From: Fibrobacterota bacterium
GTDB taxonomy: Bacteria > Fibrobacterota > Fibrobacteria > UBA11236
Assembly (NCBI GenBank): GCA_043753995.1
Contig: JAYUVP010000304.1
Span: 348-64,347 of the forward strand
Direction of reading: 5' to 3'
Length of the DNA: 64,000 bases
A program made the position numbers and the translations under genes. Below are positions 35,545-63,482 of this stretch, one piece after another; positions within the stretch are counted from its first letter, which is position 1; every line of letters begins with the position of its first letter. A model generated the notes under the pieces. The model worked only from the letters and a program-made list of their open reading frames with translations, was not told the origin of the DNA and did not search any database.

Positions 35545-35553
35545 TTCTCCAAT

Positions 35554-43106: not shown

Positions 43107-43288
43107 CTCATGCGAAATCTTCTATTCATCCTCTCCCCGTTGCGCGGGGACGGCACCCGGTAGGCGCTTCATTACGTTTGCCGGGTGCCAACAAATTGAA
43201 GCGAACCTAAAGCCGCCTTATCGCCGTGATCAGTCGTTGACTATGTCTTGATGGTTCTGCGTAGAACCCCGTTTTCGTCCGGTGAAGG

Positions 43289-44083
43289 TCAGCGGATGGC
43301 AATAATCGTATCTAAAACAGTATCGATTTTTCCTTCGTCCGTCAGGCGGTTGCCCGTTCCTCTGAGCTTCAAAGTATCGGGTAACGTCTCGCCTTCATTA
43401 AGGATTTCATATTTGAAGCCGTAGCAAGTATTCGCGGTGGAATCACAACTCCCAGCATTGTCTCCATAAAGATCAATGAGTGTTGTTTGTGGCGGCGACT
43501 CCAAGGACGTGAGCTTAATACCCGAAATAATTTCTCCAAAGTGTAGGCTGTTGAATTCCGTGCGCAGGAAAATCCTGCCCTTGGTATCATGGGTGATTCG
43601 GATGCCCTCGGGTGATTTGCCATACTCCCCAAACTCGCCCAGATCAGGAATGAAGCGAATATCCGCGCGCTTGCTTCCTACGATAGCAGCGCTCAGCGTC
43701 GGCGAGCAAGCGTGGCACTCACTCCGATCTGAATTTTCGATGATAAATACGGTGCTAGAATCACTCAGCTTTTGTTCCAGCAAGATCCGTGAATAAACCG
43801 TACCCTCGATCCTTTTCAAAGGATTGTCCGCCGCCGGAGTCCAGGCTGTATGCGGTGAACCGCAACCTGAATAAGCCGTATCGCTTCCGATGCAAACATG
43901 AAGCGGTGCGCCATGGGAGTGTTTAATCAGCACATCGACGGCGAGCGGCACTGATGGCGAGTTGGGTGGTACCGGCTTCGGCTCCCGGCATTGGGTCACC
44001 GCCATGAAAAGGGCCAGTGAAAACGCTAGGCCAAGGATCGCAGGTTTCGACTTTTGCCGATTGAATATCATCTGATTGTCCAT
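43289..44083 (-). CDS. Hypothetical exported protein/lipoprotein
   Basis: 264-aa ORF; hydrophobic N-terminus ending VTQC; several Cys pairs (CHAC). Family not recognised. Confidence 0.6.
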   Translation of the reverse strand: MDNQMIFNRQKSKPAILGLAFSLALFMAVTQCREPKPVPPNSPSVPLAVDVLIKHSHGAPLHVCIGSDTAYSGCGSPHTAWTPAADNPLKRIEGTVYSRILLEQKLSDSSTVFIIENSDRSECHACSPTLSAAIVGSKRADIRFIPDLGEFGEYGKSPEGIRITHDTKGRIFLRTEFNSLHFGEIISGIKLTSLESPPQTTLIDLYGDNAGSCDSTANTCYGFKYEILNEGETLPDTLKLRGTGNRLTDEGKIDTVLDTIIAIR

Positions 44084-44097
44084 TGCCGAGAGTCGCC

Positions 44098-44496
44098 CTA
44101 CCGGGCGGCTTTTTTATTTGCGGGCTTTTTGCTGGGTGCTTTCGCCTCGCGTCTGCCCTGGCCCGTATGAGCCGTATAGCCTTCGATCAGCTTGAGAAAG
44201 GCCCGCTGTTCGTTCGACGGCAGCTTGGCAAAAATTTCCTGTATCCTCGCCATGCGGCTATTGCCGTGAAAGAGCCGATTCGGTTCGGTCTTTAGAGGTT
44301 CACCTATGCCGAGCAATTGATTGGGGGTAACGCCAAGGATCTTGCCGATCTCAATGAGCTTTTGAATCGAAGGGTAAGCTACTCCTTGCTCATAGCGGGT
44401 TATGAGTTGTTGAACCACGCCCAAGGCCTCGGCCATTTGGACTTGGGTTAAGCCCTTGGCTTGCCGTAGCTTGCGAATGTTTGCTCCGAGTTCCAC
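44098..44496 (-). CDS. XRE-family HTH repressor of the element
   Basis: IRKLRQAKGLTQVQMAEALGVVQQLITRYEQG; divergent from the primase operon. Confidence 0.9.
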   Translation of the reverse strand: MELGANIRKLRQAKGLTQVQMAEALGVVQQLITRYEQGVAYPSIQKLIEIGKILGVTPNQLLGIGEPLKTEPNRLFHGNSRMARIQEIFAKLPSNEQRAFLKLIEGYTAHTGQGRREAKAPSKKPANKKAAR

Positions 44497-44535
44497 GAAG
44501 CAAAAGGTAGGGTGGGGTTTCGTGGGGCCTTCCGA

Positions 44536-44556
44536 AATACTATCCTAAGTAGTATT
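44536..44556. promoter_or_regulatory. Inverted-repeat operator between xre and the primase operon
   Basis: AATACTA-N7-TAGTATT in the AT-rich intergenic gap. Confidence 0.55.
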
Positions 44557-44603
44557 ATGATCTATCTTAAAAAACTTACGATCACCCCTTGACACCCCTC
44601 CCG

Positions 44604-44969
44604 ATGAACCCACCCACAGGCACCCCCCAGACCCCCGGCGAGCCCCGCCCCAAGGACGACCTGCTGGTCTTGATTGCCGATCTCCACTTGGGGGCCTTCC
44701 TCATGTGCAAGGGCGTGCCCTTCAAAGGCCTGCAATTCGACGTGCGGGGCCGCGCAACCCTCATGTTCGAGGGCCGCGAAGCCATCCGGCTTCGAGCGGC
44801 CTATCACCAGGATGAAGTCAGCGTTCACCTTCCCAAGTTCAAAGGGGCCTACAACGCCCTGCGTGACTTGCTCTGTGCAAAACCCGAAGATACCCGTAAC
44901 CCCGAAGGTACCCATGCCCATACCCGAAGCCCTCTTGCAGAAGGTCAAGGCCGAAACCAATCTGCTTGA
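44604..44969 (+). CDS. Small hypothetical protein, possibly DUF5659-like DNA-binding protein
   Basis: DLHLGAFLMCKG...LMFEG...YHQDEVSV...YNALRDLL pattern; first gene of the primase operon (ORF from TTG 44589). Confidence 0.5.
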   Translation: MNPPTGTPQTPGEPRPKDDLLVLIADLHLGAFLMCKGVPFKGLQFDVRGRATLMFEGREAIRLRAAYHQDEVSVHLPKFKGAYNALRDLLCAKPEDTRNPEGTHAHTRSPLAEGQGRNQSA

Positions 44970-47643
44970 AATCGCCCGCTCTTTCGGTCTTAGCTTAACC
45001 CCCAAGGGCGATGACCACTTCACCCGCTGCCCCTTCCATCACGACGACACGCCGTCACTCTCGCTCAATGCCAAAAAGGGACTCTTCCATTGCTTCGGCT
45101 GCGGGGCCAAGGGCAATGCCATACAGTTCGTGCAGAAAATGGAAGGGCTGACTTTCCCCGAGGCTTTCAAGAAGGTGGCGGGTAATCGTGCCACACCCGA
45201 AGCCGCCACACTCGTGAGCCCAATGCCCGCAAGTCCCCTAGCCGCATCTGCCTCAAGGCTCATCACCCAAGCCCTCTCCCGCATGCGTCTTTGCCTCGAA
45301 GAAACGCCCAAGGTGCTCGAATACCTCACGCAAACGAGGGGCCTTGCCTTCTTGCTCAACCGGCAAAGCCGTGAGGCTGTCGGCGCGGGCTTTTGCCCCG
45401 AAGATTTCGGCATACGGCTGGATGCCAGGGCCAAGAAAGAATTGACCGCCGCCGGGCTTCTGACGCCCGAAGGCTTTCCGCATTTCGCGGGCTGCGTGGT
45501 CTTTCCGCTTCGCGATGTTAACGGGGAGGTTACCGGCCTTTACGGCCGCAAGATTGCGGGCGACGGCCACTTCTACCAGAAGGGCGAGCGGCGGGGCTTG
45601 TTTGCCTTGCATGGCGGCGGAGGCAGTGACAGCAACGGCAGCAATGGCGGGCTCTTCATCGCCGAATCGGTGATCGATGCGCTCAGCTTGCATCAAATGG
45701 GCGCTTCATCGGTGTTGGCCTTGCATGGTGTTAACGGCTTCACGCCCGCGCATGAGGCTTATATCAAGGCTCGCGCTCAAGATGGCCTTGGCTTATACCT
45801 CGTGCTCGATGGCGACCGGGCGGGCCGTGAAGCCTCGGTCAAACTCGCCGAGCGCATCAAGGCCATGGGACTTTTGGCGCATATCCTCGAAATGCCCGAA
45901 GGAAAAGATCCCAACAGTTTTCTTTTAGCCGCACAAGCCGCCAGCCCACGCACTTTGAAAGACTTGCAGTCCCTTACAGGTTACCCCAAGCCGCACGCGC
46001 CCGCCATAAGCCTGCGCCGCGACGGTGATAGCTTCATCGCCCTTACGCCCCTGCGCCGCTATGTCATCACCGGCCTTACCGCCCATGGTTTCGACCGCCT
46101 CCGGGTCACCCTCAAATGCATTTGCCTCAAGAGCCCCGGCATATTCCATATCGACAGTCTCGATCTCTATGCGGCCCGTGCCCGCGCCTCTTTTGCCGAA
46201 GACGCCGCCGCCGAGTTGAAGCATAAAGAAGCCGACATCGCCGCCGAACTCAAGACCTTAATTCCCTTGCTCGAAGAAGCCCGCTTAAGCCTTGCGAACA
46301 GCACGCAAGAGGCGGCAGTGCCCACCATGAGCGAAGCGGAAAAGGCCGAGGCCTTGGCGGCCTTGAAGTCGCCGACCTTGATAGCCGATCTCATCAAGAA
46401 TTTCGAGGCTATGGGGCTTGTGAGCGATGAGAAAGCCAAGCTCCTCGGCTATCTCGGCACGGTGTCGCGCCTGCTCGAAATGCCCTTGGGCATGCTCATC
46501 ATTTCACGTTCGGGCGCGGGCAAGACGGCTTTGCAAGATGCCATTTGCGCCTTGGTGCCCGGCGAGCACGTGATCAAATACACCCGCCTCACGGGCCAAG
46601 CCCTCTTCTATAAGGAGCGCGACGGACTCAAGTACAAAGTCTTAGCCATCGAAGAAGAAGACGGCATGAGCGCCGCGAAATATTCGATACGCACCCTCGC
46701 CAGCTCGCAGCGGCTCACCGTGGCCACCACCCGAAGCGATCCCAAAACCGGCAAGCTCAAGACCGATGAATACTTGGTCGAAGGCCCGGTCTTCATCCTC
46801 ATCGCCACCACCAACCCCGACGCGCTGGACGCCGAGACGCGCAGCCGCTTCATCATCTTGACCATAGACGAGAGCCCCGAGCAGACGCGGCGCATCATGG
46901 AATCGCGCAAGCTGAGCTACACCTTGGAAGGCAGGCGCAAGCATCGGGCGGGAAGAAAAACGCTGTCGCATTACCACAACATGCAGCGCTTGCTTAAGCC
47001 CATCGAGGTGGTGAACCCTTTTACGCCTTATATCGATTACCCCTTCGACCGCCTGCAAATGCGCCGCGAGTTCGGCAAGTACATGGCCCTCATCAATGCG
47101 ATAACCCTTTTGCATCAGCATCAGCGCGAGGTGAAGCATGATCTTGATGACGGCAGCAATACGCCCTATATCGAAACCACGGTCGAAGACATCGCCTTGG
47201 CCAATGAGCTTGTGCTTGAGTTCTTTCCTAATTCGCTCGATGAATTAGCCCCGCATACCCGCAATCTCGCAGCCGAGGTGATGAAGCTCATCGAGAAGAG
47301 CGGCGGCGACACTCGCTTCACCCGCAAGGCCTTGCGTGACTTCTGCGGCTGGACGGATTGGAGCATACGCCAAGGGTTAGAACAGCTTGTGATCCTTGGT
47401 TATATCATCAAGACCATGGCGCAAAACGGCCTTTGCAATACTTATGAACTGGTGATAGACCCTTGCGGAGAAGACCGCAGCTCACTCTTTCTCACTTCAC
47501 CCGACGAATTGCGCAAACGCCTGGAAGCGGCTAGGGCTGAGGCCAGGACGGCGGGGAAGGTGGCCACTCTATCGCCGAACCTTGTGCCGATGAAAAACGG
47601 CGGCGAGGCGGCTAAAAGAAAAACCACTGGGGGCCGGTCATGA
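44914..47643 (+). CDS. CHC2 zinc-finger/TOPRIM DNA primase fused to a P-loop ATPase (putative primase-helicase)
   Basis: CPFHHDDTPS...CFGC zinc finger; TOPRIM (AESVIDAL, LDGDRAG); Walker A SRSGAGKT; Walker B-like LAIEE. ATG 44914 has a GAAGG RBS. Confidence 0.88.
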   Translation: MPIPEALLQKVKAETNLLEIARSFGLSLTPKGDDHFTRCPFHHDDTPSLSLNAKKGLFHCFGCGAKGNAIQFVQKMEGLTFPEAFKKVAGNRATPEAATLVSPMPASPLAASASRLITQALSRMRLCLEETPKVLEYLTQTRGLAFLLNRQSREAVGAGFCPEDFGIRLDARAKKELTAAGLLTPEGFPHFAGCVVFPLRDVNGEVTGLYGRKIAGDGHFYQKGERRGLFALHGGGGSDSNGSNGGLFIAESVIDALSLHQMGASSVLALHGVNGFTPAHEAYIKARAQDGLGLYLVLDGDRAGREASVKLAERIKAMGLLAHILEMPEGKDPNSFLLAAQAASPRTLKDLQSLTGYPKPHAPAISLRRDGDSFIALTPLRRYVITGLTAHGFDRLRVTLKCICLKSPGIFHIDSLDLYAARARASFAEDAAAELKHKEADIAAELKTLIPLLEEARLSLANSTQEAAVPTMSEAEKAEALAALKSPTLIADLIKNFEAMGLVSDEKAKLLGYLGTVSRLLEMPLGMLIISRSGAGKTALQDAICALVPGEHVIKYTRLTGQALFYKERDGLKYKVLAIEEEDGMSAAKYSIRTLASSQRLTVATTRSDPKTGKLKTDEYLVEGPVFILIATTNPDALDAETRSRFIILTIDESPEQTRRIMESRKLSYTLEGRRKHRAGRKTLSHYHNMQRLLKPIEVVNPFTPYIDYPFDRLQMRREFGKYMALINAITLLHQHQREVKHDLDDGSNTPYIETTVEDIALANELVLEFFPNSLDELAPHTRNLAAEVMKLIEKSGGDTRFTRKALRDFCGWTDWSIRQGLEQLVILGYIIKTMAQNGLCNTYELVIDPCGEDRSSLFLTSPDELRKRLEAARAEARTAGKVATLSPNLVPMKNGGEAAKRKTTGGRS

Positions 47644-47661
47644 CGGCGGCAGGCTTGGCCC

Positions 47662-47767
47662 ACCCTGTGAACCCTGAGGCACCCTGTGAGACCCTGTGTG
47701 AAAAGAAGTCACAGGGTTTAAACCCTTTTGTTTCCGGGCCTTACGGTCGCTTTTACACCACCCTGCG
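47662..47767 (+). repeat. Iteron-like ACCCTG(TG) array downstream of the primase
   Basis: ACCCTG at 47662, 47671, 47681 and 47691; inverted CACAGGGT at 47710-47717; further ACCCTG at 47760. Confidence 0.7.
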
Positions 47768-47817
47768 GGCTTTTCGGTAAAAGGTGGGTGGGGGTGCGAA
47801 AAACGAGGGTAAAGCCG

Positions 47818-48819
47818 ATGCAAAGCGGCATGAATGCGACCCTGCCCCCGGCTTTTACCGGCCTTTCGCTTCGCTTTCGTCTCTGCCTTGAGCGCTATCG
47901 TGAGCACTTGGAGGCCAAGGGTCATTCATCGCATACCGTGCGCAGCTACACCCACACGGCCAAAGACGTACTAGGGTATTTGGCTGGCTTTCATATCGAG
48001 ACCTTACGAGAGGTCTTGCCGCAACACCTGCACGCCTATCAAAACAGCCTCATGGAAACAAGGTCAAGCGGCAAGCCCCGCAGCCTACGCACCGTAACCT
48101 TGCGGTTAACCGAGGTGCGGGCCTTCTTCGCCTACCTGCATGCCCAAGGCGAAATCCTGCTCAACTCGTCTTTAAGCCTGGTCCTGCCCAAGGCGCAAAA
48201 ACGCTTGCCGCGTTTCGTGCCGCCGGTTAACGACATGGCAAGCCTCATCGAAGCGCCGATTTTGGACGGGCCTTTGGGCCTAAGAGATCGGGCCATATTG
48301 GAATTGCTTTACTCATGCGGATTAAGAAGCAGTGAGGCCCGCGCCATGGAGGTCGCCGATCTCGACATGCGGAGCCGGGTTCTCTTCGTGAGAGGCAAGG
48401 GCGGCAAAGATGCCCTGGTGCCTTTCGGCAAGACGGCGGCCAAGGCCTTGGTCAATTACTTGCACCATGGCCGCCCCAAGCTCACTGGCAAAGGCGGTGA
48501 TGCACAGCCTTACCTCTTTCTCAGCAAGAGTGGCCGCAGCATCACTTCACAAAATTTGCTCGACATGGTGCGGCGTCATGCGAAGGCTTTGAACCTGCAA
48601 GGCAATATTTCGCCGCATGGTTTGCGGCATGCGTGCGCCACCCACCTTTTGCAAAACGGCGCCGATATACGGCACATTCAAAAGCTCTTGCGGCATAGCA
48701 GTCTCAACACCACTCAGATTTACACCCGCCTTTGCATCGACGATTTGAAAACAGCGCAAGAGCGCTACCACCCGCGTGAAAAAATCGCTGCAAAAACCGA
48801 TGCCGAAATCAGCGCATGA
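47818..48819 (+). CDS. Tyrosine recombinase 1 (XerC/XerD-like)
   Basis: RDRAILELLYSCGLRSSE, RGKGGK, HGLRH and LLRHSSLNTTQIY give a complete R-K-H-R-H-Y set (ORF from 47728). Confidence 0.93.
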   Translation: MQSGMNATLPPAFTGLSLRFRLCLERYREHLEAKGHSSHTVRSYTHTAKDVLGYLAGFHIETLREVLPQHLHAYQNSLMETRSSGKPRSLRTVTLRLTEVRAFFAYLHAQGEILLNSSLSLVLPKAQKRLPRFVPPVNDMASLIEAPILDGPLGLRDRAILELLYSCGLRSSEARAMEVADLDMRSRVLFVRGKGGKDALVPFGKTAAKALVNYLHHGRPKLTGKGGDAQPYLFLSKSGRSITSQNLLDMVRRHAKALNLQGNISPHGLRHACATHLLQNGADIRHIQKLLRHSSLNTTQIYTRLCIDDLKTAQERYHPREKIAAKTDAEISA

Positions 48820-49831
48820 GAATGCCCGCCTTGGTGAACTCGGCGGTTTTTTAGAAGGCTATCTCTTTTCTTTTAGCCGCGAAAGCCGCCAAGGTTTTTC
48901 GCTTTTGTCGCACCCGTCTTCGTCACAATCGTCTGCTAGGCTATCGCATGCGAAGAGCACGGCTTTGCACCTGCATTACACCTTGGGGCTCTTTCTTAAA
49001 AACATGCGGGCCATGGGCTGCGAAGCGCCGTCAGACATGCAGGCCGAGCACATCACGCGGTATTTCGCGGGCATGCGGAATAGGCGACCCGCCACCTTGG
49101 CTTATCATCGCTGGGCCATACAGGATTTCTTCGCGTGGCTTATTGAGCGGGGTTATTTGCTCATCAGCCCATGGCCGGAAAGTCTTGCACTCAAAACCCC
49201 GCCGCCGTATCCGCGCCTCATTTTACCGCCGCAAGAAATTCTCGGGCGGTTTGCGGCCGTCACGGGGGCCGCTGGTGATGACGATAGGAAGAGCGGCACG
49301 CCGCTGGCCCTAAGAGACCGCGCAATTCTGGAAATCGCCTACGGCCTGGGACTACGCATGAGCGAATTGTGCCGCTTGAATGTGGGCGATATTCGCGGCG
49401 ACCTGCTTTTCGTGCGGGGCAAGTTCGGCAAAGAGCGCATGATGCCGCTAGGGCTTTCGGCGTCTGAGTCACTTGCGCGTTACCTCGCCTTATCTCGCCC
49501 TATACTCAAGGCCCGTCAAAAAGCCGAGACGCAAGCCGCCGGGTATCCGTTGGAATCAAGCGACCCGCTTTTCCTTTCACGCTGCGGAACGCGGCTATTG
49601 CCCGGCGGTTATGAATGGCTCATGAAGCGGTGTCGCAAGGCCATGCCGGGGCGTTTCTCAATGCACGGTTTGCGGCACGCTTTCGCAACCCACATGCTTG
49701 AAGGCGGCGCACCCTTGCCGGTGATACAAGCCTTGCTCGGACACGAGAAAATGGAAACGACCTCACGCTATGCCCATGTAAGCGTGAAAGCGCTTCGAGA
49801 AGTTCTAGACCGGTGCCACCCAAGAGCGTAG
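48776..49831 (+). CDS. Tyrosine recombinase 2 (XerC/XerD-like)
   Basis: RDRAILEIAYGLGLRMSE, RGKFGK, HGLRH and LLGHEKMETTSRY give a complete catalytic set; overlaps the end of recombinase 1. Confidence 0.93.
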   Translation: MKKSLQKPMPKSAHENARLGELGGFLEGYLFSFSRESRQGFSLLSHPSSSQSSARLSHAKSTALHLHYTLGLFLKNMRAMGCEAPSDMQAEHITRYFAGMRNRRPATLAYHRWAIQDFFAWLIERGYLLISPWPESLALKTPPPYPRLILPPQEILGRFAAVTGAAGDDDRKSGTPLALRDRAILEIAYGLGLRMSELCRLNVGDIRGDLLFVRGKFGKERMMPLGLSASESLARYLALSRPILKARQKAETQAAGYPLESSDPLFLSRCGTRLLPGGYEWLMKRCRKAMPGRFSMHGLRHAFATHMLEGGAPLPVIQALLGHEKMETTSRYAHVSVKALREVLDRCHPRA

Positions 49832-50429
49832 GCGACCCGAGCGCGGGAATCATCACGTAAAATTCAGATTGACGCTGAATGCGTATCTGAGGGCGACGGT
49901 TTGCCACCTATTCCGAATATCTGAGCCAATGGTTGATGGGTTTCCGTTGCCCACTGGTTTTTTGAGGGTGAACACATACATACCGCTCAAGTGTTCGCGC
50001 AGATCTACCGCAATGCCAATTTCACCCATGCTGGTTTTGATGTTTTTGACAATTTCATGGATGCATGCCTTGTTTATCGCGATTATATCTGTCGTACACG
50101 TCACCATAAGTAGATCCTTTGTGACTTATCGTTACCATGCTTGCATTATGTTTCGAGCCAATCAAGTTGGCGGGGTCTTTCGCGCCTTTGCGGTGCTGTT
50201 AGGTTTCTCTTTGTCCTGACAGGCCAAGGCTTTGCATTTGATGCGAGGCCACGGCCAAACGGAGTTTGTCCCGCCGCCGCCTCGCTTGACATTCTTTGCG
50301 CCATCGCCTGCCATGGGTTCACATCACCGCAAGCACGCTTTGGCGGCTTTCATCAAATCCGCCAAAGCGTGCGCGTCATTGCCGGCGGGCCGCTCGCCCT
50401 TCCTGTTCGCTTCTGCTTCGAGGCGAGCT

Positions 50430-50506
50430 TTTACATAATGACGTTTACGCAAACCCTGTCGGGTGCGGCCGCACGGCGGCCTTCGCGTAAAGCGGCATTA
50501 TGCAAA
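50430..50506 (+). other. Composite recombination site A: two inverted dif-like sites (6-bp and 7-bp spacers)
   Basis: TTTACATAA-TGACGT-TTACGCAAA (50430-50453) ... TTCGCGTAA-AGCGGCA-TTATGCAAA (50482-50506). The function is inferred. Confidence 0.7.
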
Positions 50507-50616
50507 CCAGCCGGTTCCACATACGCCCGCTAGGGCGGGCTATGCCATGTCGCGGCGCGAAAGCCCCCTTTGCGCACCCCTGGTGGTTAGATTTCATCCA
50601 CTGTCACTCATCAAGG

Positions 50617-51279
50617 ATGAATTCGGATATGCTTCGATTTGGAAAATTTGTCGTGTTCTCAGGAATGATTTGCTTGCTTGCATTATCAGGTTGCAATGAC
50701 CCGAAATCAGCTTCAAAAGAAAATTTCAAAAAGGCTCTTCAAGTCTATTACGATGCCCACCCTTTGATTGTCACTCAAATTTGGCTGACGCTGCCGGTGA
50801 TTGAGGGCAGTTCGGCGTATAAAACGAATGAAGAATTTGTGACGTTTTTCGCCTCGGTCGGCTACTTGGAAGGCCGTGACACGGTTGCCGAAATTGATTC
50901 TGTCGGATATTTGGAAGGACACTTTGCGCGTGTCAATATCAAAATCAAGCGCCCCACAAAAGTTTGGCAATTGACCGAAGAGGGAAAAAAGAATTTCATA
51001 ACCACGTCAAACCCTTTGGTTGGTTCGGTAGGTGGTTTCAGATGGGCCGATGTTCAGGTTAAGGACGTGGAGTCGTTCACCGAACCGGCGGACATGATGG
51101 GCAAGCGTGTAAGCGAGGCAACCTATTCGATCACCCTTGTGAATGAAAAACCTTGGGTCAACCAAATCAAGGGGAAAAGGGGGTTCGCTGCCAACTTTAT
51201 GTACCTCGACCAAATTGGCGCTGCAAGAAAATCGAGTTTGGTTCTGACTTCGGACGGATGGGTTGACGCAAGGCAGTAA
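50617..51279 (+). CDS. Hypothetical lipoprotein
   Basis: Start ATG 50617 or 50629; lipobox LSGC followed by NDPKSASKENFKKAL. Lies between composite sites A and B. Confidence 0.7.
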   Translation: MNSDMLRFGKFVVFSGMICLLALSGCNDPKSASKENFKKALQVYYDAHPLIVTQIWLTLPVIEGSSAYKTNEEFVTFFASVGYLEGRDTVAEIDSVGYLEGHFARVNIKIKRPTKVWQLTEEGKKNFITTSNPLVGSVGGFRWADVQVKDVESFTEPADMMGKRVSEATYSITLVNEKPWVNQIKGKRGFAANFMYLDQIGAARKSSLVLTSDGWVDARQ

Positions 51280-51287
51280 ATCCAGGA

Positions 51288-51912
51288 CTTGGGCGTCCGC
51301 GTAGCGGAAACCCATTTCGGTACTCTTTTCCGCTGCCACCATCATTTTCAAATGGCTTCCCAAGCATTGAAATTCTGTGTTCATCGACCTTGGGCTTCCG
51401 CGCAGCGGAAGACCAAGGCCACAAGCAAGCACTAGGCCGCTACAGCGTGGCGGCGTCTCATGCGCGTGCGGGGTACGGCTCCACACGCGCCAGCCCGCAC
51501 CGCCGCCGTCATATACGGGTTACCCTCTCGTTTGGCCTTCCTCTCCCGCTGTCTCATGACTCGCCCGTGCCTCGACATTTGGTCCTTGCTTGCGACAGGA
51601 CTCGGGGATTAGGCCGCTCGCTTCGCGAGACGTCCTAACCCCCGAGTTCGTCGGAACGCCTCGTAGCATTGTCCACTCTCCAGGGAATAGGGTGGGTGGC
51701 GCGCTAGGCGACCCTAAGCCCCTTGGCGGCTTAATGCCCACAGGGCCGCCAAGGGGATTGCGGCAAGTTTGCATAATCACGACTTAAACGAACCCCGTCA
51801 ACCGGGGTTTGAGTAAGTCGGATTATGTAAAGCCGCCCGCGAAGCGTGCGGCGGACTTGGCGTTGGGTCGCCAGCCCTTGGGGTGCGGGGAGCGCGGAGC
51901 ACACCAAGGGCT
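51288..51912. other. Hairpin-dense non-coding region
   Basis: Stems at 51388-51418, 51600-51647, ~51720-51756 and 51873-51912; a 22-bp direct repeat at 51288 and 51389; no convincing ORF. Confidence 0.65.
51768..51831 (-). other. Composite recombination site B: inverted copy of site A architecture
   Basis: Minus strand reads TTTACATAA-TCCGAC-TTACTCAAA-CCCC...GGGG-TTCGTTTAA-GTCGTGA-TTATGCAAA. Confidence 0.7.
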
Positions 51913-52096
51913 TGACGCAGTATGCGCGGTGCCGTCATGAATGCCAAAGTGGCGGACGGTCGCCGGGCTTGCCCGGCGGTGGTCTGCCACCATGCTAGGC
52001 ACGGCGCAGGATGCGGCAAAGCGCGGGGGGATGGGAGGAGGACAGGGAATCTCCTGGTTATCTTTCGTGTTACCTCGTTATACCCGGAGTCTTTAC

Positions 52097-52549
52097 ATGG
52101 ATTGGCGCAGCGTCATGCGTATTGTCTATGCTGCATCGCTGGCTTTCGTTGGCTTGTTCTTCCTTGCCGTCATGCTGGCGCAAATCGAGGTGGCTAAACA
52201 AATTGCGAAGCTCCCGGTACTCTCATTCAGCATGATGTCCTTGCTTTGGCTATCGCCGGGCGTGTTGGCCGTGCTGTCGGCTTGGCGTCTATGGTCCGCT
52301 AAAGGGGCGGCGCTCGTCTTTTGGGCTTCGGTGAGTCCGGCTTATGTCCTTGCACGCTTTTGGGCGCATCAGCGCCCCGCATGGCTTGGCGGCATGGTTC
52401 ACGGCGAATGGGGGTTGGCTTCGGCCATGAGCGGCGGCCCCGACAAGATGCTGGCGGCAGTGATATGGCTTGCCATGCTCATCCTAGGGCTTGGGGGCTT
52501 ATTCGCCGTTGCCGCCTTCTTTTTCCCTAAAGGCAATCCTAAGCCCTAG
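52097..52549 (+). CDS. Hypothetical integral membrane protein (~4 TM)
   Basis: ATG 52097 with GGAG RBS (ORF from 51941); hydrophobic helices. Confidence 0.6.
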   Translation: MDWRSVMRIVYAASLAFVGLFFLAVMLAQIEVAKQIAKLPVLSFSMMSLLWLSPGVLAVLSAWRLWSAKGAALVFWASVSPAYVLARFWAHQRPAWLGGMVHGEWGLASAMSGGPDKMLAAVIWLAMLILGLGGLFAVAAFFFPKGNPKP

Positions 52550-52595
52550 AGTGGGGGGTCAAAAAAAGAGCCTTATACGATTTTTTGGACCTCTG

Positions 52596-52634
52596 TAGGT
52601 GATAATGGAAATCATCACCTATGTGCTTTCGGGA
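52596..52634 (+). repeat. attR: symmetric tyrosine-recombinase core plus the 30-bp direct repeat
   Basis: TAGGTGATAA-TGGAAA-TCATCACCTA (9/10 inverted arms); 52605-52634 is identical to 33917-33946. Confidence 0.85.
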
Positions 52635-53144
52635 GCTCTGGAGCATCGCGACTCGCTGGGCAATGGCGGTCTCCTGAAACGCGATACCGTGCAACGCATG
52701 CGCGCGGGCACGGGCATACGCCATAGCGAAGCCAATCCCGATTCCAATAAGCCCTTGCATCTGTTTCAAATCTGGATTTTGCCCCAGGTCAAGAATCTTT
52801 CGCCGGCCTATGAAGATCGGTATTTCGATCCGCAGGGCGCGCTTGGCAAGTGGCAATTGCTGGCTTCGAAGGATGGCCGCGAAGGCAGTTTAGATATCGC
52901 TCAGGATGCGAGCTTATGGCGGGTGTTTTTGCGGCCAGGCGAAGAGGTATCGCTCACGTTACCTGAGGGCGAAGGCCACGCCTTTCTACAATTGGCGAGC
53001 GGCGAAGCCGAGGTCAGCACGGTGGGCGAAGGAGAGGCGGCGGCTACACTCAAGGGGAGTGATGCCGCCGCGATGAGCCAAGTGAGGAGCGTGAAGGTGA
53101 AAGCACTGCAAGCCACCGAGGCCTTATTATTCGGGTTGAGATAG
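52605..53144 (+). pseudogene. Displaced 3' fragment of the pirin gene (lacks codons 1-61)
   Basis: Begins MEIITYVLSG and is highly similar to residues 62-245 of 33734-34471; upstream sequence is unrelated to pirin. Confidence 0.88.
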
Positions 53145-53154
53145 GCCTTGCAAA

Positions 53155-53496
53155 TTATTCCTTAGAAGGAAACTGCGACGCGATCCAACCCACTACGGTG
53201 ACAACGAGCCAACCCAATACAGCGGGCCATAGTCCGTCTATGGTAAATCCCGGTAATAGCCAGGCCACCAAGCCCAACATGGCCGCATTGATCACGATTA
53301 AGAAAAGTCCCAAAGTGATCACGGTGATAGGAAAGGTGAGTAAGATGAGCACCGGTTTCACCACCGCGCTTACCACGCCAAAGAGGATTGAGGCTAGGAT
53401 TAAGGTCCCCCATCCCTCGACTCGGAATCCTGGTATCAGATAGGCCGCGAGCCACAAGCTCAGGGCGACGACTAAAAAACGGATGAGTATGGACAT
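53155..53496 (-). CDS. Phage-holin-family (YvlD-like) membrane protein
   Basis: PGFRVEGW, VKPVLILLTFPITVITLGLFLIVINA and PGFTIDG motifs. Confidence 0.88.
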   Translation of the reverse strand: MSILIRFLVVALSLWLAAYLIPGFRVEGWGTLILASILFGVVSAVVKPVLILLTFPITVITLGLFLIVINAAMLGLVAWLLPGFTIDGLWPAVLGWLVVTVVGWIASQFPSKE

Positions 53497-53526
53497 GTTA
53501 CCTACTTCCGAAGCTGTAGTTGCCGA

Positions 53527-54039
53527 TTAGGCGAGTTTGGTGCCGCTGAAAGAGGGAGTTGCGAGAGAAGGCAGCCCTTCTGCCTCGTATTGCGCGGTCA
53601 AATTCTCCTTCGCTTCGGCAATCTGATTACCAAGCTCCTCAAAGTCGACACCAGCCTCTTTGGCTTGGGCGAACATTCCGTCCTCTCTTTTTTCTTCTTC
53701 TTTGACATGGTGTTTGATTAATTCCGATAGGACTTTGACCTTGGCGTCGAAAAAATCGTCCTCTGGAGAACCGGTCTCGATTTCCGCGAGCATCACCTTT
53801 GCGCCGTCATGCTCCACAAAGGCCTCGTGCCACAATTCCTCTTCCACCTTACCCTTGCAGGCGGGGTAAAAAATGTCCTCTTCTATTTTGGTATGGATGG
53901 CCAGTTCCATGCAGATTTGCGCGGCGATGGTTTTTTTCTTGGCCTTGGAATTAGTGGCGTCGTATTGCTCAAAAAGGCTTTCCACCTTACGATGGTCGGC
54001 TTTGAGTAAGGCCACGGCGTCGATGTTGGAATTTTTCAT
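53527..54039 (-). CDS. Hemerythrin/HHE cation-binding domain protein
   Basis: LLKADHRKV, HTKIEEDIFYP, EHDGAK and HHVKEEE motifs. ATG 54039 has a GGGAG RBS. Confidence 0.88.
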   Translation of the reverse strand: MKNSNIDAVALLKADHRKVESLFEQYDATNSKAKKKTIAAQICMELAIHTKIEEDIFYPACKGKVEEELWHEAFVEHDGAKVMLAEIETGSPEDDFFDAKVKVLSELIKHHVKEEEKREDGMFAQAKEAGVDFEELGNQIAEAKENLTAQYEAEGLPSLATPSFSGTKLA

Positions 54040-54331
54040 GGATATCTCCCTGTTATGGACATTTTTGAACATATACGAAGCTAGCCAGTCGGACTATGGG
54101 GTGTTTCCATAAGTCGCCGGAATATTCTTGGCTGTAATTGATATGTGTAAAACGATACAAAAGTTATAATACGAAATATTGCGTAGTGCCGTTATTGAGA
54201 AATAAAGTCGGTTCTGTCAATGGAGTGAAATGCGCTCAGGATATGGTATTGATATATAAAGGCGGGCCTTTTATGACGATATTGTTTGTAAGTAGCTCCG
54301 TGGCGATTCCGCCAATGTGATCGGAGATAAA

Positions 54332-54535
54332 ATGTTTAAAGGACTCTTTGCAGCGCTAATGCTCGTGGGACTCGTTTTGCTTGGGTGGGGATTGCAGGCC
54401 TACCGGAGCGTAGGTTCAGAAATGACGGAGACCTTCACGGGAGCGCCGTCCGACAAGGCTATTTGGTTGCTTGCGGGTGGGGCCATTGCCGCACTAGCGG
54501 GAGGCTTTGGGCTTATCCGGGGTGGACGCGCTTGA
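54332..54535 (+). CDS. DUF3185-family small membrane protein
   Basis: GLVLLGWG...SVGSEMTETFTGAPSDKAIWLLAGG. Confidence 0.8.
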   Translation: MFKGLFAALMLVGLVLLGWGLQAYRSVGSEMTETFTGAPSDKAIWLLAGGAIAALAGGFGLIRGGRA

Positions 54536-54586
54536 AGCCTTTCGAAAAGGTTTAGCTGCTTTCGCCCGTGGCGAAGGCCTTGGCTT

Positions 54587-55699
54587 TCACTCTAGCGTCG
54601 AGGCCGTCACGGTATGACGCGTATCTTCATGCATGGAAATGCCCGGCAGGGCATACCATGTACCACCCAAGTTACCCCGTATCACGGAGCGATCAATGAC
54701 AATGTCGCCGGAATGATCATTGGTGACGAAGAAAATTCCTGCCCCATGAGCGATGACTTCGTTCTTTTCGATGGCGACACCGCAAAGCGAAAGTGTCATG
54801 GTATTGCCGTCATTATATATGGCTCCGCCGCTACCGCCTCCAGGCGTGCCCGATTGCGCGGGGTTTCCGCCCCGACCCACGGCGCGATTGTGCGAAAACA
54901 AGCTATTGATGATTTTCCAGGAGACGCCGATGCTGCTGACGCCGCCACCATTGGAGCCGATATTGCCGTAACCTGGAGCTCCGCCGAAAGTGGAATTCAC
55001 GACATAAACGGGCTGGCCCTTGTATTGGCTGAAAACGCGCAAGGCAGCTCCACCCACATCGGGGCCTTCCAGGGCGCAGGCATTGTTGAAGAAACGGCAA
55101 TTCACCACCTTGAGCCGTCCGCCGCGCACCCAAACGGCACCGCCGCCGTCATACTCGGTTTCGCTGCGTGAATCCCCGTTGATAAAGGTGAGGTTTTGCA
55201 AGGTCAGGCGGGGATGATCTTGATCCTGGCAATGCGATGTCGTCCATTTTTGATTCGAGTCGCAGGTATTCATATACAGGATGCGGGTCTTGTTTTCACC
55301 GCTCAAGGTGATGAGGCCGCGACCATCGAGTACGATTTCGGGCGAGGCGTCATTGAAAACCTTGGCCGGACGCGAAAGCCGGATGAGGGTCGGCTCTTTG
55401 CCGCAATCGAAAGCAATGCGGCCGCCTAAAGCAACGGCTTGGAGAACAGCCGCTTCGGTGCAAGATTCCGCCGTACCGGACCCAATGACGCGATCGGGAG
55501 AGTCCATGTCGACCAGGCCCCCCTCGGCGGGAATGGAGCACGTACCGTCTGGGTTACCGGCGGCAGGGCCATGGGCGGGATTCTTGAGGGGATTGTCCAC
55601 GGACACCGTGGGGCTAACGGATTCGCGGCAGGCCACAAGGCAAAAAAAGACTAGGCAGGCCCAAGCCCTTGGTTTATTCACGGCAAAACTGCAAAACAT
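54587..55699 (-). CDS. Right-handed parallel beta-helix (pectin-lyase-fold) lipoprotein
   Basis: Lipobox LVAC; GGGAVW, GGAAL, GGGVS and GGAIY repeats with N-x-A/FxxN. Likely start ATG 55699. Confidence 0.7.
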   Translation of the reverse strand: MFCSFAVNKPRAWACLVFFCLVACRESVSPTVSVDNPLKNPAHGPAAGNPDGTCSIPAEGGLVDMDSPDRVIGSGTAESCTEAAVLQAVALGGRIAFDCGKEPTLIRLSRPAKVFNDASPEIVLDGRGLITLSGENKTRILYMNTCDSNQKWTTSHCQDQDHPRLTLQNLTFINGDSRSETEYDGGGAVWVRGGRLKVVNCRFFNNACALEGPDVGGAALRVFSQYKGQPVYVVNSTFGGAPGYGNIGSNGGGVSSIGVSWKIINSLFSHNRAVGRGGNPAQSGTPGGGSGGAIYNDGNTMTLSLCGVAIEKNEVIAHGAGIFFVTNDHSGDIVIDRSVIRGNLGGTWYALPGISMHEDTRHTVTASTLE

Positions 55700-55741
55700 T
55701 GATATTTCACCCCTTAATTTCTCCCTTGTGTGTCCTCTCCC

Positions 55742-57226
55742 ATGGCCGCTCCCGACGCTTCGCATCATCATTTTATCAATCGAGCGCTGAGTTTTGCCTT
55801 ATGGGAAAATTTATTCAAGCCCATAGCCCCCTTACTGGAACTGGTTTGCGCCGGCCTTTTCGTAGGTGGAGCCTGGGGCAAGTACAAGTTTTATGAATCA
55901 TTGATTTATTTCCTGTTCCGCATCAGCCTCATGGGCATGGATCGGGGCATTATTTGGTATTACTCCCAAGTCGACGAAAAGGCTTACCTGAAAGCCGTTT
56001 TCCGCAGCTTGAATTGGTGCTTGCTGGCTTTTTTGGTGCTTGCGGTTTTCGCCACGGGTAGCCATTATGGCTGGCTGCCCTTTTCATCCATGCTGGGCAA
56101 AAATGAGGCGGCCTTTAGCACTACTGCGCCCGAATTTTTCCTTTATCTGCTCAGCGTGCCGCTCATGGTGATTATCGAGCTATGCGTCCTAGCCAATGTG
56201 AATAAGCGCAATTTGAAATACCGCATCCTGGTGCAAAGCCTGGCCGTACCCTTATTCACCTTCGGCGCAGCCTTGGCCGGGCGTCTGGTTGCGCCCCATT
56301 TTTTCACCTTGCCCTTTTGTCTACTGCTCGGAAATACCGTTGGCGCAGCCTTGGCTGTATTCGGCTTTTTACGTACCCATCGGCCTACCTGGAGCGATGT
56401 CAGTTTCGGTGCGCCTCCCGCCCTAGCCATGATTCGCTATTCCTTGCCGCTGGCCGGAGCCAATCTATTTTCAGCCATGGCCGTGCGCGTCGACATCTTC
56501 ATGTTGGCAGGACTTTCGGGTGTGCACGGTCTTGAGGTGTATTCCGTGGTGAGCATGGTGGGGAAGGCCTTAACCTCCATTCGGCAATCCTTTGAGAACA
56601 TTATTTTGTCGGCTTTTTCTTCTTCGGGGAAAGGCGAATTGACCCTAAAGCTCAAACACTATTTTAATTATGCGATTTGGCTTGTCATGAACATACAGGG
56701 TGCTCTTTTAGCTTTGGCGGTGGTATTCGGAGCCGAAATGCTCGGCTTGGTAAACCCCCAATATTCGTCGGGAGGCACGGTGCTGGCCGTGACCGCTTTC
56801 TTCATTTACATCAATACCGCTTCTGACTTTTCAGCTCTCTTGTCCTTGGGTCTGGGCCGCACCGCTATCGTACCCATAAGCCAAGCGGTTTTTTTCGCAG
56901 TCAACCTAGGTCTAAACATCTTACTCATCCCGCGATGGGATGTCTTAGGTGCAGCGGTGGCTTTGGGGTTAGCCAATATGACGGCAGGAATATTGTATTA
57001 CGGGTACTTGGCTATAAGGAATCGCAGCACCTTACTCTTGCCCGAATATTGGTTTTCGATCTTTGCGAGCATACTGCTTTGGCTTTTGCCTTCGGGTGTA
57101 GTCCTTTATTGGGGAGGCAAATATGAATTCAAGATTCTGGCTTTGCTTGTGAGCGCGATTTTGGTTTTCTCCATCCAAAGAACTTGGTATAAAAGATTCA
57201 ATCGTATTCTCCATGGCCTTATCTAA
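55742..57226 (+). CDS. Oligosaccharide flippase (Wzx/MOP superfamily)
   Basis: Multi-TM; YSLPL, RVDIFML and NILLIPRWDVLGAAVA motifs. Confidence 0.8.
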   Translation: MAAPDASHHHFINRALSFALWENLFKPIAPLLELVCAGLFVGGAWGKYKFYESLIYFLFRISLMGMDRGIIWYYSQVDEKAYLKAVFRSLNWCLLAFLVLAVFATGSHYGWLPFSSMLGKNEAAFSTTAPEFFLYLLSVPLMVIIELCVLANVNKRNLKYRILVQSLAVPLFTFGAALAGRLVAPHFFTLPFCLLLGNTVGAALAVFGFLRTHRPTWSDVSFGAPPALAMIRYSLPLAGANLFSAMAVRVDIFMLAGLSGVHGLEVYSVVSMVGKALTSIRQSFENIILSAFSSSGKGELTLKLKHYFNYAIWLVMNIQGALLALAVVFGAEMLGLVNPQYSSGGTVLAVTAFFIYINTASDFSALLSLGLGRTAIVPISQAVFFAVNLGLNILLIPRWDVLGAAVALGLANMTAGILYYGYLAIRNRSTLLLPEYWFSIFASILLWLLPSGVVLYWGGKYEFKILALLVSAILVFSIQRTWYKRFNRILHGLI

Positions 57227-58496
57227 ACAAGAATCTTTTTTAGCGGCTATTGATATTTCCGTTTTGGGAACGGCTTTGATTTATCGCGCTCACCAAACCG
57301 GAGTGCATCGAGCTACAGTGGAATTGTTGCGAGAGTTTTCTTTGCGACCGGAATTGTGCCTTGAATTCGTCAGTGTTGGGCGTGCGCCTTGGCTCGAATT
57401 CGCCACCTACATCGCCTTTGAGCGCCAATTGAAAAAAACCGGATGGGTATTTCGCAAGCGCTCGACCTGGCTGCCGTTTTGCTATTCCATCTCGCTCGCT
57501 CTCGTCAAAGTCGCCCTGGTCGCCAAGAATAAGGGCTGGATGTCCGAGTCGATTCTGGCTGGTTTCATGCAATGCCTAGGCAAAGGCTTGAAACCCCAAG
57601 TCGCGGCTTTTTCCGCTATCACTTATTATTCGCCTGCGCATGCTTTGCCGAATTTGCCTAAAGGGGTGAATCGCTGCATCACCATCAACGATATGATTCC
57701 GGTGAAATTCCCGAATTGGTATACCGAAGTCAGCAGTTTTCAGAAAATCGTGAAAAGCATTGATGTCGATCAAGATTGGGTCATAGCCATCAGTGAATCG
57801 AGTCGTCGAGATTGGCTCGATTATTCCAAAGGCAATACGGAACGGTCCAAGGTCATACTATGCGGTGTCGCGGAGTATTTCTATCCACGTCGTGATTCGC
57901 ATGCCTTGAGCACGATTCGATTGAAATACGGAGTTGGACAATCGCGTTTTATTTTGGCCGTGGGAACTCTTGAGCCGCGAAAAAATCTTGAGGTCTTGAT
58001 TCAATCGTTTATCAACCTCAAAAAGAAAAAGCCGTTTCACGATGTTCAATTGTTGGTGGTTGGCCCCAAAGGGTGGAAAAACGATGGCATTTTCCAACTT
58101 TTGCAAAGCAACCGTGATTTGAAAGATTCTATTCGGCTCGCGGGTTTCGTACCAGATGAAGACTTGCCCTTTCTTTATTCGGCTTGCGAGTTTTTTGTTT
58201 TTCCAAGTCTCTATGAAGGATTTGGCCTGCCGGTTGCGGAAGCTCTGCGATGCGGTGCCGCGGTCATTTGTGGGCATCACTCGTCCTTGCCTGAGGTTGC
58301 CGCCGATGCCGCGGAATACGTGGATGTGACCAAGCCCGAAGAAATAGAAGCGGCCATGGCTGGACTATTGTCAAATCCAGAACGATTACTCGAATTGCGC
58401 GAAAAATCACCGAAGTCTTGCGAACGGCTAACTTGGAAAAAAACAGCCGATGAATATCTCCATTTATTTCAGTCTTTTTTCCGTTCCATCGACTGA
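57213..58496 (+). CDS. GT4 glycosyltransferase
   Basis: VGTLEPRKN and FVFPSLYEGFGLPVAEA motifs. Confidence 0.92.
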   Translation: MALSKQESFLAAIDISVLGTALIYRAHQTGVHRATVELLREFSLRPELCLEFVSVGRAPWLEFATYIAFERQLKKTGWVFRKRSTWLPFCYSISLALVKVALVAKNKGWMSESILAGFMQCLGKGLKPQVAAFSAITYYSPAHALPNLPKGVNRCITINDMIPVKFPNWYTEVSSFQKIVKSIDVDQDWVIAISESSRRDWLDYSKGNTERSKVILCGVAEYFYPRRDSHALSTIRLKYGVGQSRFILAVGTLEPRKNLEVLIQSFINLKKKKPFHDVQLLVVGPKGWKNDGIFQLLQSNRDLKDSIRLAGFVPDEDLPFLYSACEFFVFPSLYEGFGLPVAEALRCGAAVICGHHSSLPEVAADAAEYVDVTKPEEIEAAMAGLLSNPERLLELREKSPKSCERLTWKKTADEYLHLFQSFFRSID

Positions 58497-60421: not shown

Positions 60422-60546
60422 GGGCTAATGAAATTAAAAAAGACGTCCCACGCCACCACCTAATCCCACCCTCCGCCTTTATAGCCTCACCGGGTCTTGT
60501 TACCTTGGGCCCTTAAAATTCAGGAACCTTCAGGAATCCACATTAG

Positions 60547-61152: not shown

Positions 61153-61167
61153 GGCGCAGACCGCATC

Positions 61168-63467: not shown

Positions 63468-63482
63468 ACGGAAGGTGACCCC

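Follow-up and report, generated by a model that had tools for sequence, protein, structure and literature searches.

To our knowledge, only two systems are known in which tyrosine recombinases act on DNA folded from a single strand, namely, the attC sites of integrons and the attP sites of CTX-type phages. Both systems play a central part in spreading resistance and toxin genes. In the attP(+) site of CTXφ from Vibrio cholerae, two inverted dif-like sites on one strand anneal into a hairpin of ~150 nt (PMC5357621), and CTXφ attP(+) (PMC5357621) and integron attC (PMC5027507, PMC4792948) are precedents for folded sites at which a single strand exchange is resolved by replication. Here, we describe two inverted sites, A and B, in a 64,000-nt stretch of DNA from a Fibrobacterota bacterium (contig JAYUVP010000304.1; hereafter the window). 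They flank a lipoprotein gene within an 18.7-kb island (33917-52634) that is inserted in a pirin gene and encodes two Xer-like tyrosine recombinases, Rec1 and Rec2. Each site is the core of a unit whose intrastrand folding is under selection, and we assign a probability of roughly one-half to the reading that this unit is a recombination site of the Xer/dif type, the type that resolves chromosome dimers, and works as a folded single strand.

Anatomy and covariation of the folded unit

Direct reading of the window confirmed the sequences and coordinates that the initial annotation had given for the two sites. On the forward strand, the left half of site A, TTTACATAA (50430-38)-TGACGT-TTACGCAAA (50445-53), is followed by 28 nt and the right half, TTCGCGTAA (50482-90)-AGCGGCA-TTATGCAAA (50498-50506). 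Site B, read on the minus strand, consists of the left half TTTACATAA (51831-23)-TCCGAC-TTACTCAAA, 15 nt, and the right half TTCGTTTAA-GTCGTGA-TTATGCAAA (51776-68). This half-site pattern was found at only two places in the 64 kb, A and B, against an expectation of 0 from 100 shuffles. When their folds as single-stranded DNA (ssDNA) were compared with those of dinucleotide shuffles, z scores ranged from -4.0 to -8.1 (-4.0 for A; -5.6 and -8.1 for B).

Both sites are thus real, but each is only the core of a longer conserved unit of ~140-200 nt, a point at which the initial annotation had stopped short. This unit comprises an 8-bp outer stem (P1; CCGGCACG...CGTGCCGG in A-type and CCGGGCCG...CGGCCCGG in B-type units), a small 5' hairpin (P2), and a main stem made up of outer arms (P3), spacer (P4), and inner arms (P5). 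The "loop" of this stem, 15-49 nt long across units, is filled by two small hairpins (P6 and P7), which results in a T-shaped three-way junction; one further hairpin and a conserved tail lie 3' of these helices. The main stem is a 9-6-9 dyad (spacer 6/7) with the consensus TTYRCRTAA. A covariance model built from 18 units (R1) retrieved unit A with 88.9 bits (E = 8e-19) and unit B with 68.9 bits (E = 4.5e-14), and nothing beyond these two in the window.

In the alignment of the same 18 units, 88.5% of the pairing cells were paired. Double-sided changes occurred at 23 pairs and amounted to 95 double-change cells versus 30.2 ± 4.2 in shuffles, none of 500 of which reached this value, and the signal was lost when partner columns were slid by one to three positions. 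The covarying parts are the 6-7-nt spacers, the two loop hairpins, the 5' hairpin, and the 8-bp outer stem; the proposal that the sites fold and covary within one strand was therefore borne out by the spacers and four other helices. The four 9-bp arms are almost invariant, and the spacers are free yet complementary. Rare changes in the arms are compensated, as in L011 (TTATGCAAA/TTCGCATAA) and in L002 and L014 (TTT.../...AAA; related loci are referred to by such numbers throughout). A stepwise compensatory path can be followed in the spacer, from GGGTTT/AAACCC (L004) through GGGTTT/AAAGCC (L010) to GGCTTT/AAAGCC (L008).

Spacer lengths and irregularities were counted in 22 homologous units. 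The spacers measure 6/7 in 8 of them, 6/6 in 13, 7/7 in 1, and 7/6 in 0; the 6-then-7 order initially regarded as shared by the two sites is thus recurrent without being universal. A mismatch or bulge in the spacer is present in 13/22 units, with 12 of the 15 irregular positions being spacer position 3, and a bulge, where found, is always on the 3' side. The dyad architecture is accordingly combined with a position-specific irregularity of the spacer. At one position per arm pair, nearly all island units have A opposite C on the written strand and G opposite T on the other. The A/G asymmetry that had been noted for A and B is invariant in the islands, whereas most of the small circles described below lack it in their outer arms. 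The remaining positions of the fold show no strand bias (G·T 16 versus A·C 10), so that the folded strand cannot be read from the wobble pairs alone.

The likeness to the Escherichia coli dif site is marginal, since the four half-sites agree with it at 15-17 of 22 arm positions versus 15-16 in shuffles. However, the outer arm plus 2 nt, TTATGTAAAGC, is identical (11/11) to the XerD arm of the dif site predicted for Chlorobi (PMC3025954 supplement) and also close to the XerD arms of dif in Bacillus and Gemmatimonas (PMC3025954 and supplement). The resemblance to dif claimed at the outset hence stands as a 9-6-9 dyad of the Xer type and an arm shared with the dif predicted for Chlorobi, and is only modest with respect to E. 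coli.

Islands and rolling-circle replicons carrying the unit

Two DNA-pattern scans made without protein information, covering metagenomes as well as 596 Gb of species-representative genomes, returned one locus in genomes (L003, a Fibrobacterota metagenome-assembled genome) and 11 in metagenomes. The scans matched only this element family; those of IMG/VR viral contigs gave no match, nor did blastn searches with the unit against GenBank phages and PLSDB plasmids. In every locus with enough flanking sequence, the primase-helicase and recombinase genes recur and/or the pirin gene is truncated at one and the same codon, and all scan matches with enough flank adjoin either a tyrosine recombinase gene of the family or a pirin attR. 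A search of other genomes had been expected to reveal a linkage to recombinases, and the unit is indeed tightly linked to tyrosine recombinase genes there.

Close homologs of Rec2 (42-45% identity) occur in the same gene order (P0002-P0009 family), with a homolog of site A 3' of the Rec2 homolog in L001 and L002. A-type units were found in the matching position in L001-L004, L007, L008, L010, L012, and L013, and inverted B-type units in L003, L004/L006/L009, L010, L012, and L013. The layout is constant: the recombinase gene(s), the A-type unit, 1.2-2 kb, the inverted B-type unit, 0.5-1.35 kb, and attR. The A-type unit is always the one that adjoins the recombinase gene. On every contig of sufficient length (the window, L003, L004/L006/L009, L010, L012, and L013), the covariance model detects exactly two units, and these are always inverted. 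The pirin gene is cut at the same codon in L003, L004, L006, and L009. Two distant relatives, L008 and L013, which possess a single recombinase and a primase-helicase that is 35-40% identical, have kept the unit, and L013 also has the inverted second one.

The genes between A and B differ among islands, namely, a lipoprotein gene in the window, a helix-turn-helix (HTH) and a membrane protein in L003, a RelE-like/HTH pair in L013, small open reading frames (ORFs) in L004 and L012, and a PhD/PIN pair and more in L001. Despite these different genes, the inner edges of A and B are separated by 1225-1274 bp in 4 of 6 islands (window, 50525-51749; L004, 2228-3478; L012, 6400-7673; L013, 6036-7291); it is 1893 bp in L003 and 1978 bp in L010. 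The similar lengths may reflect a spacing constraint or be a coincidence. In the main island clade, the interval contains a perfect 13-bp palindrome, GGGGCTTTGATTTTCC-N4-GGAAAATCAAAGG (L001, 7205-7245; L002, 7753-7795; L003, 2666-2625; L012, ~6690-6730), which is absent from the window. It adjoins a conserved ORF of 83-99 amino acids with the motif FD(F/L)xxFxxxxREARG, and the two may be an operator and a small regulator. Different genes also occupy the stretch from unit B to attR, which forms a second variable bay: L004 has a gene for a protein with a helicase-associated domain there, and L012 a RelE/HTH pair. In L003, this bay contains four exact 16-bp direct repeats (GTGCGGATGTATGAAA; 486-551) and, next to them, another pair of 16-bp repeats; nothing comparable is present in the window.

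Related versions were also seen in individual sequencing runs. In run X2, a 151-nt contig of depth 2, aligned with window positions 50479-50525, has the a2 half-site of unit A and its flank with a different loop, which indicates a second, related island in that community. Runs X3 and X7 (wastewater and activated sludge) contain versions of 51195-52700 that are ~92% identical.

One of the metagenome matches, L011, proved to be a complete circle, 2,618 nt long once a 127-nt assembly overlap had been taken off. Its Rep is a rolling-circle protein of the G2P type known from inoviruses and plectroviruses (match to PF23343 above threshold; PHROG annotation "rolling circle DNA replication initiation"). 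The circle also encodes a DUF6266 protein, which is a possible structural protein, and a protein of ~200 amino acids; it has a σ70-like promoter and one unit, which begins 15 nt 3' of the rep stop codon. The family of such circles spans 2.6-3.7 kb and includes L011, L015, L016, and L018, all of 2,618 nt, as well as L020-L024. The PF23343 Rep was found in L011 and L015-L022, and the circles are devoid of a primase-helicase. According to the covariance model, each circle has one unit, just 3' of rep and on the rep-sense strand, and these units fold with z scores of -5.8 to -9.3. A search of viral contigs with the Rep of L011 returned no relative. The ~200-amino-acid protein has only sub-threshold matches to Pfam integrase families; its alignment, however, contains invariant R65, K89, H148, R151, H173, and Y182 residues in XerD-like spacing (R-K-HxxR-H-Y), from which we infer a tyrosine recombinase reduced to its catalytic domain. 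No circle gene was detectable in any island, and the idea that island cargo derives from integrated circles was discarded.

The circle units vary in their arms. Perfect pairing of the outer arms (TTTACATAA/TTATGTAAA) is seen in L015 and L018, whose inner arms differ and which again show the 6/7 bulge at position 3. L021 and L022 have the opposite polarity: the left half, TTCGCCTAA-TAACGTA-ATATGTAAA, is followed by two hairpins and the right half, TTTACATAT-TACGGTA-TTAGGCGAA, so that a C-like arm is at the base and a D-like arm adjoins the T-cap; spacer position 3 is once more mismatched. Since the reversed unit of L021 retains the dif-like stem, the T-cap, and the position-3 mismatch, what is conserved is the folded core site.

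The features of the window's island are compiled in Table 1. From left to right, the island contains surface-protein cargo, the XRE regulator, the primase-helicase, iterons, Rec1, and Rec2, followed by unit A, the lipoprotein gene, unit B, a 202-amino-acid ORF, and attR. The position of the XRE regulator is conserved in L001, L002, L012, and L013, and orthologs of the primase-helicase (L001-L003 and L012) are 57-61% identical. The iterons, which have comparable repeat arrays at the matching place in L003 (5178-5219) and L012 (4044-4081), are likely the origin used by the primase-helicase, that is, the double-strand replication origin of the island. Rec1 reaches about 240 bits with the XerC/XerD models, which is under the equivalog cut-offs. 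With the integron integrase model TIGR02249 (cut-off, 265 bits), Rec1 and Rec2 obtained 94.9 and 63.3 bits, respectively, over partial stretches only, and both score higher on the XerC/XerD models. The true start of Rec2 is probably ~180 nt downstream of the annotated one, because its homologs are about 290 amino acids long. The lipoprotein gene has a GC content of 0.467 versus 0.58 for the backbone, and its product has no Pfam or NCBIfam match.

Table 1. Coordinates of the island's features and of its insertion site (positions in the window)
Feature	Position	Strand	Description
Intact pirin gene	33734-34471		3' part supplied by the island
attL core	33917-33946	+	30-bp sequence, the same as in attR; lies within the intact pirin gene
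XRE-type HTH regulator	44098-44496	-	Pfam HTH_3, 1.5e-13; divergent from the replication/recombination operon
Primase-helicase	44674-47643	+	CHC2 zinc ribbon, Toprim, and C-terminal NTPase region (Pfam); dnaG domain
Iterons	47662-47698	+	About four 10-bp direct repeats (Tandem Repeats Finder), directly 3' of the primase-helicase gene
Rec1	47728-48819	+	Xer-like tyrosine recombinase; PF00589, 4e-43; XerD structure 1a0p, 2e-43
Rec2	48776-49831	+	Second, more divergent Xer-like tyrosine recombinase; PF00589, 6e-32
Unit A (A-type)	50382-50524	+	Outer stem P1, 5' hairpin P2, dif-like hairpin 50430-50506
Unit A, half-site a1	50430-50453	+
Unit A, two-hairpin loop	50454-50481	+
Unit A, half-site a2	50482-50506	+
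Cargo gene between the units	50629-51279	+	216-amino-acid lipoprotein; signal peptide, lipobox LLALSGC
Non-coding stretch	51280-51749		470 bp, GC-rich, from cargo gene to unit B; several hairpins (inverted repeats I5, I7, I12)
Unit B (inverted copy)	51750-51866	-	dif-like hairpin 51831-51768
Unit B, half-site a1	51831-51808	-
Unit B, loop hairpin	51807-51793	-	15 nt
Unit B, half-site a2	51792-51768	-
202-amino-acid ORF	51941-52549		Predicted membrane helices, no family match; between unit B and attR
attR	52594-52634	+	Core-type site GTAGGTGATAA-TGGAAA-TCATCACCTAT plus 30-bp identical core (52605-52634)
Displaced truncated pirin 3' copy	52605-53144		Begins at codon MEIITYV; nucleotide similarity to the intact copy up to 53138, ~88% identical
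Expected attP junction of the island			...GTAGGTGATA/ATGGAAATC...GGGA/TCGCTGG

Judging from the two pirin copies, the island carries its own pirin 3' end and has displaced the original one. Islands that target tRNA genes likewise bring the 3' end of the gene and displace the original; a tRNA scan of the window detected none. At attR, the island-side arm is an inverted repeat of the pirin-side arm around TGGAAA, and in L003 and L004 the island-side arm varies along with the local pirin sequence. The tandem Rec1/Rec2 pair also has an ordinary function, which had escaped the initial annotation and is separate from A and B: the integration of the 18.7-kb island into pirin at a core that is unrelated to these sites. 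The right end of the island is conserved in distant islands (window, 52540-52604; L003, ~425-355; L004, 4856-4925) as GGGGGGTC(A/G)AAAAAAG...CCTTATA...TTTTGAC..., and is possibly an arm-type or accessory site of attP.

In both of the sediment metagenomes that contain it, the island (34114-52634) was assembled as one contig of 18,521 bp with depths of 15.4 and 14.7, and the chromosome on either side (24000-33900 and 52700-64000) had depths of 6.9-9.1. The resulting figure of about two island copies per chromosome could be due to island circles that replicate outside the chromosome, to a tandem copy, or to a second host or carrier; the assembly is unable to tell these forms apart because the 30-bp core defeats k = 31. 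A 12-nt loose end at 52605 was considered as a junction of the empty site (attB) and rejected, as it belongs to a 42-nt contig that corresponds to attL. It therefore provides no evidence of an empty site or a circle junction, given that a 30-bp core at k = 31 cannot link the flanks.

Interpretation of the unit

The reading to which we give about even odds is that of a folded recombination site. On an unpaired carrier strand, the unit would fold into a T-shaped hairpin whose main stem rebuilds a core of the Xer/dif type, with two inverted 9-bp arms around a spacer of 6-7 nt. This core would be bound by a pair of Xer-family tyrosine recombinases (Rec1/Rec2, the mini recombinase of the circles, and/or host XerC/XerD), and the mismatch or bulge at position 3 would limit the reaction to one strand exchange, leaving replication to resolve the product. 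A rolling-circle replicon would offer one single-stranded form and one unit, and a double-stranded island two inverted units, that is, one correctly folded copy per strand, which would jointly bracket a variable cargo bay. We infer the binding by a recombinase, the enzyme that acts, the single-strand exchange, and, above all, the partner site and the outcome, be it cargo exchange, integration, or resolution. This reading is favored because the Xer/dif-core stem, the T-cap, and the fixed weak point in the spacer are conserved on three backbones, namely, two-recombinase islands, one-recombinase islands, and mini-recombinase circles, in both polarities and always with a tyrosine recombinase gene adjacent. 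The occurrence of one copy in single-stranded replicons and one per strand in double-stranded islands also fits. The initial proposal that the sites are ssDNA substrates for the tandem recombinases or for host Xer therefore stands as the leading hypothesis, backed by fold, covariation, dyad, linkage, and rolling-circle occurrence.

Several observations weigh against this reading. Identical 9-bp arms lie beside recombinases that are 33% identical or not detectably similar, and a shared host factor may therefore bind them; host XerC/XerD are plausibly the binder, and a common host factor fits the conservation of the arms better than the elements' own enzymes do. The pirin att core is unrelated to the arms of A and B, the spacers of A and B differ within every island, and a recombinase core by itself does not account for the additional conserved hairpins or for the GTAC-type motifs in the flanks. 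Two inverted copies can neither be the product of an integron-type reaction nor excise a cassette by it. Homologs of the circle Rep and DUF6266 proteins are all on contigs of <=3.7 kb, several of them demonstrably circular, and no integrated circle was found. No inversion, excision, integrated circle, or hybrid site was seen among the assembled contigs, the only material in which such products were sought.

Some of what had been inferred from the window alone did not hold. The integron-like cassette system found no support, because hairpin-by-hairpin exchange would give direct and not inverted repeats; the islands have two units, always inverted and never in an array, and Rec1 and Rec2 are not of the IntI type. 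Supply of the system by the element's primase-helicase is not required, as the circles carry the unit without this enzyme. For the capture, excision, or inversion of the cassette, no junction was observed in assembled contigs, where rare forms are invisible, and the predicted orientation heterogeneity left no joints at the units in the Logan contigs of two samples, in which rare forms are likewise not detectable. Frequent inversion of the A-B segment was rejected, considering that the A-type unit always adjoins the recombinase gene, that the outer stems pair with their own flank, and that the spacers differ. Some role of the units in the turnover of cargo is nevertheless possible, because the A-B cargo varies and that of the window is compositionally foreign.

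Among the alternatives, the likeliest is that the units are single-strand initiation signals (sso/ssi), i.e., folded DNA at which a primase, of the host or the element, or RNA polymerase starts the complementary strand. There would be one copy per rolling-circle replicon and one per island strand, as in ssiA/ssiB of RSF1010 and the sso of ICEBs1. The single copy directly 3' of rep on the rep-sense strand, the opposite-strand pair in islands with a primase-helicase, and the large multi-hairpin structure with conserved unpaired motifs agree with this idea, and unrelated replicons are known to have sso cassettes in common, just as they share this unit. Precedents are ssiA/ssiB, which are two inverted repeats of 40 nt (PMC8567376), and an sso in an integrative element (PMC4595007); an island depth of about 2x that of the flanks fits autonomous replication. 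We still regard priming as rather unlikely, since it does not explain why the unit should contain an internal 9-6-9 dyad whose arms are invariant and whose spacer is free, nor does it account for the dif likeness, the position-3 irregularity, or the dif-like stem of the reversed L021 unit. Circles without a primase-helicase exclude a signal specific to that enzyme, and an island with its own primase-helicase and iteron origin has no obvious need for special priming sites.

Less likely still, in our view, is that the units act as double-stranded Xer sites. They would then constitute four dif-like sites in alternating orientation (D/C, C/D ... D/C, C/D), used by host XerCD or Rec1/Rec2 in the manner of Acinetobacter pdif sites or of cer/psi multimer resolution. 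The half-sites are dif-like, and inverted sites bracketing cargo, including toxin-antitoxin pairs in L001 and L013, match dif modules (PMC6449649, PMC13141974), as a recombinase gene adjoining its site matches xerS/difSL (PMC5357621). In duplex DNA, however, the covarying outer stem, 5' hairpin, and two loop hairpins would have no role, no more than 15-49 bp separates the half-sites of a unit, and the same doublet is present in single-stranded circles. Moreover, the spacers of the half-sites that flank the cargo differ, which would block a classical two-strand exchange.

Structured non-coding RNA genes, or a leader or 3' untranslated region element, transcribed such that the arm mismatches become G·U, would suit the multi-helix fold, in which compensatory changes are numerous and one strand has two invariant G·U positions, as well as the weakly terminator-like 5' hairpin followed by TTTACA, and cargo genes with ribosome-binding sites that often begin just 3' of a unit, but this is improbable because Rfam covariance models gave no match at E <= 1 on either strand of 40000-64000, there is no strand bias outside the two invariant positions (G·T 16, A·C 10), the G·G, C·C, and bulge irregularities gather at one spacer position, the invariant dyad arms point to a duplex-binding dimer, a transcript of the G·U strand would start inside variable cargo, and no convincing promoter or terminator was found. 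A search for RNA runs containing the region returned none. Two further candidates were rejected: a telomere-resolution site, because the center of the unit is a non-palindromic loop of 15-49 nt, and a guide or bridge RNA for integration, because variable spacers and loops stand against a constant pirin target and have no visible complementarity to its core.

Comparison with known systems

If the unit is a folded recombination site, a further family would show how often this solution has evolved from Xer/dif and would provide small, well-defined substrates for biochemistry; the ~200-amino-acid recombinase of the circles may be among the smallest tyrosine recombinases. The case is informative in that it concerns little-studied environmental bacteria, two unrelated kinds of replicon, and a clear, testable architecture. 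Should the units be priming signals instead, they would be a new sso/ssi class common to phage-like circles and genomic islands. Full-text literature searches returned no description of the unit and only known systems of the CTXφ, attC, pdif, and ssi/sso types.

We know of no paired folded dif-like units in tycheposons or in islands of the phage-inducible chromosomal island (PICI)/P4 type. The island resembles these elements in its tyrosine recombinase(s), primase-helicase, and regulator and in the replacement of the 3' end of the target gene (10.1101/2020.12.28.424599), whereas the pirin target and the tandem Xer-like pair are distinctive. The ssi/sso signals are similar to the units in that they are hairpins acting as single strands, present once per strand in RSF1010 and once after rep in rolling-circle replicons (PMC8567376, PMC4595007), but they lack a recombinase-type dyad core and any dif likeness. 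Furthermore, the two signals of RSF1010 are adjacent in oriV, whereas cargo separates the two units by 1.2-2 kb, and their distance from the iterons is about 2.7 kb. Acinetobacter pdif sites likewise bracket small cargo, often toxin-antitoxin pairs, with inverted, alternating sites of the XerC/XerD type (PMC6449649, PMC13141974). They are, however, single 28-bp duplex sites with no known folding, of which several modules occur on plasmids, whereas here palindromic doublets are embedded in a covarying multi-hairpin unit beside the element's recombinases, in one module that is not on a plasmid.

The analogy with attC is one of architecture only. Both are imperfect palindromes that fold from a single strand, with conservation in the recombinase-binding boxes, a free spacer (PMC5027507, PMC4792948), bases left unpaired at fixed positions on one side, and a terminal structure that varies, and both have a Xer-related recombinase gene and variable cargo nearby. 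The units differ in having no RYYYAAC/GTTRRRY boxes; their arms are TTTACATAA/TTATGCAAA and TTACGCAAA/TTCGCGTAA, and all four are conserved in sequence. Rec1 and Rec2 lack integron-integrase signatures, and in place of direct-repeat arrays with an attI or Pc platform there are two inverted sites.

CTXφ attP(+) is similar in its inverted dif-like sites on one strand, its Xer-core stem, and its imperfect central region, and, as far as circles L011 and L015-L022 are concerned, in a rolling-circle ssDNA carrier with a G2P-type Rep. The window's island, in contrast, is not a rolling-circle element and has a primase-helicase and iterons. CTX-type elements have no recombinase of their own and are integrated by host XerCD at chromosomal dif, whereas every carrier described here has a tyrosine recombinase gene and none was observed to be integrated at dif. 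The loop of 15-49 nt with two hairpins, which gives the T shape, compares with ~90 nt in CTXφ. The unit also occurs as an inverted pair in an 18.7-kb double-stranded DNA island that is integrated at pirin by another site. Taken together, there is a fair chance that the units represent a distinct third family of folded single-strand sites for tyrosine recombinases. More tentative is the wider proposal that this family arose independently of attC and CTXφ attP, as a dif mimic with a T-cap and a fixed unpaired spacer position that is portable between 2.6-kb rolling-circle ssDNA replicons and double-stranded replicative islands, and that in the latter one copy per strand frames a cargo bay, forming a Xer-based platform for gene exchange in Fibrobacterota-like bacteria.

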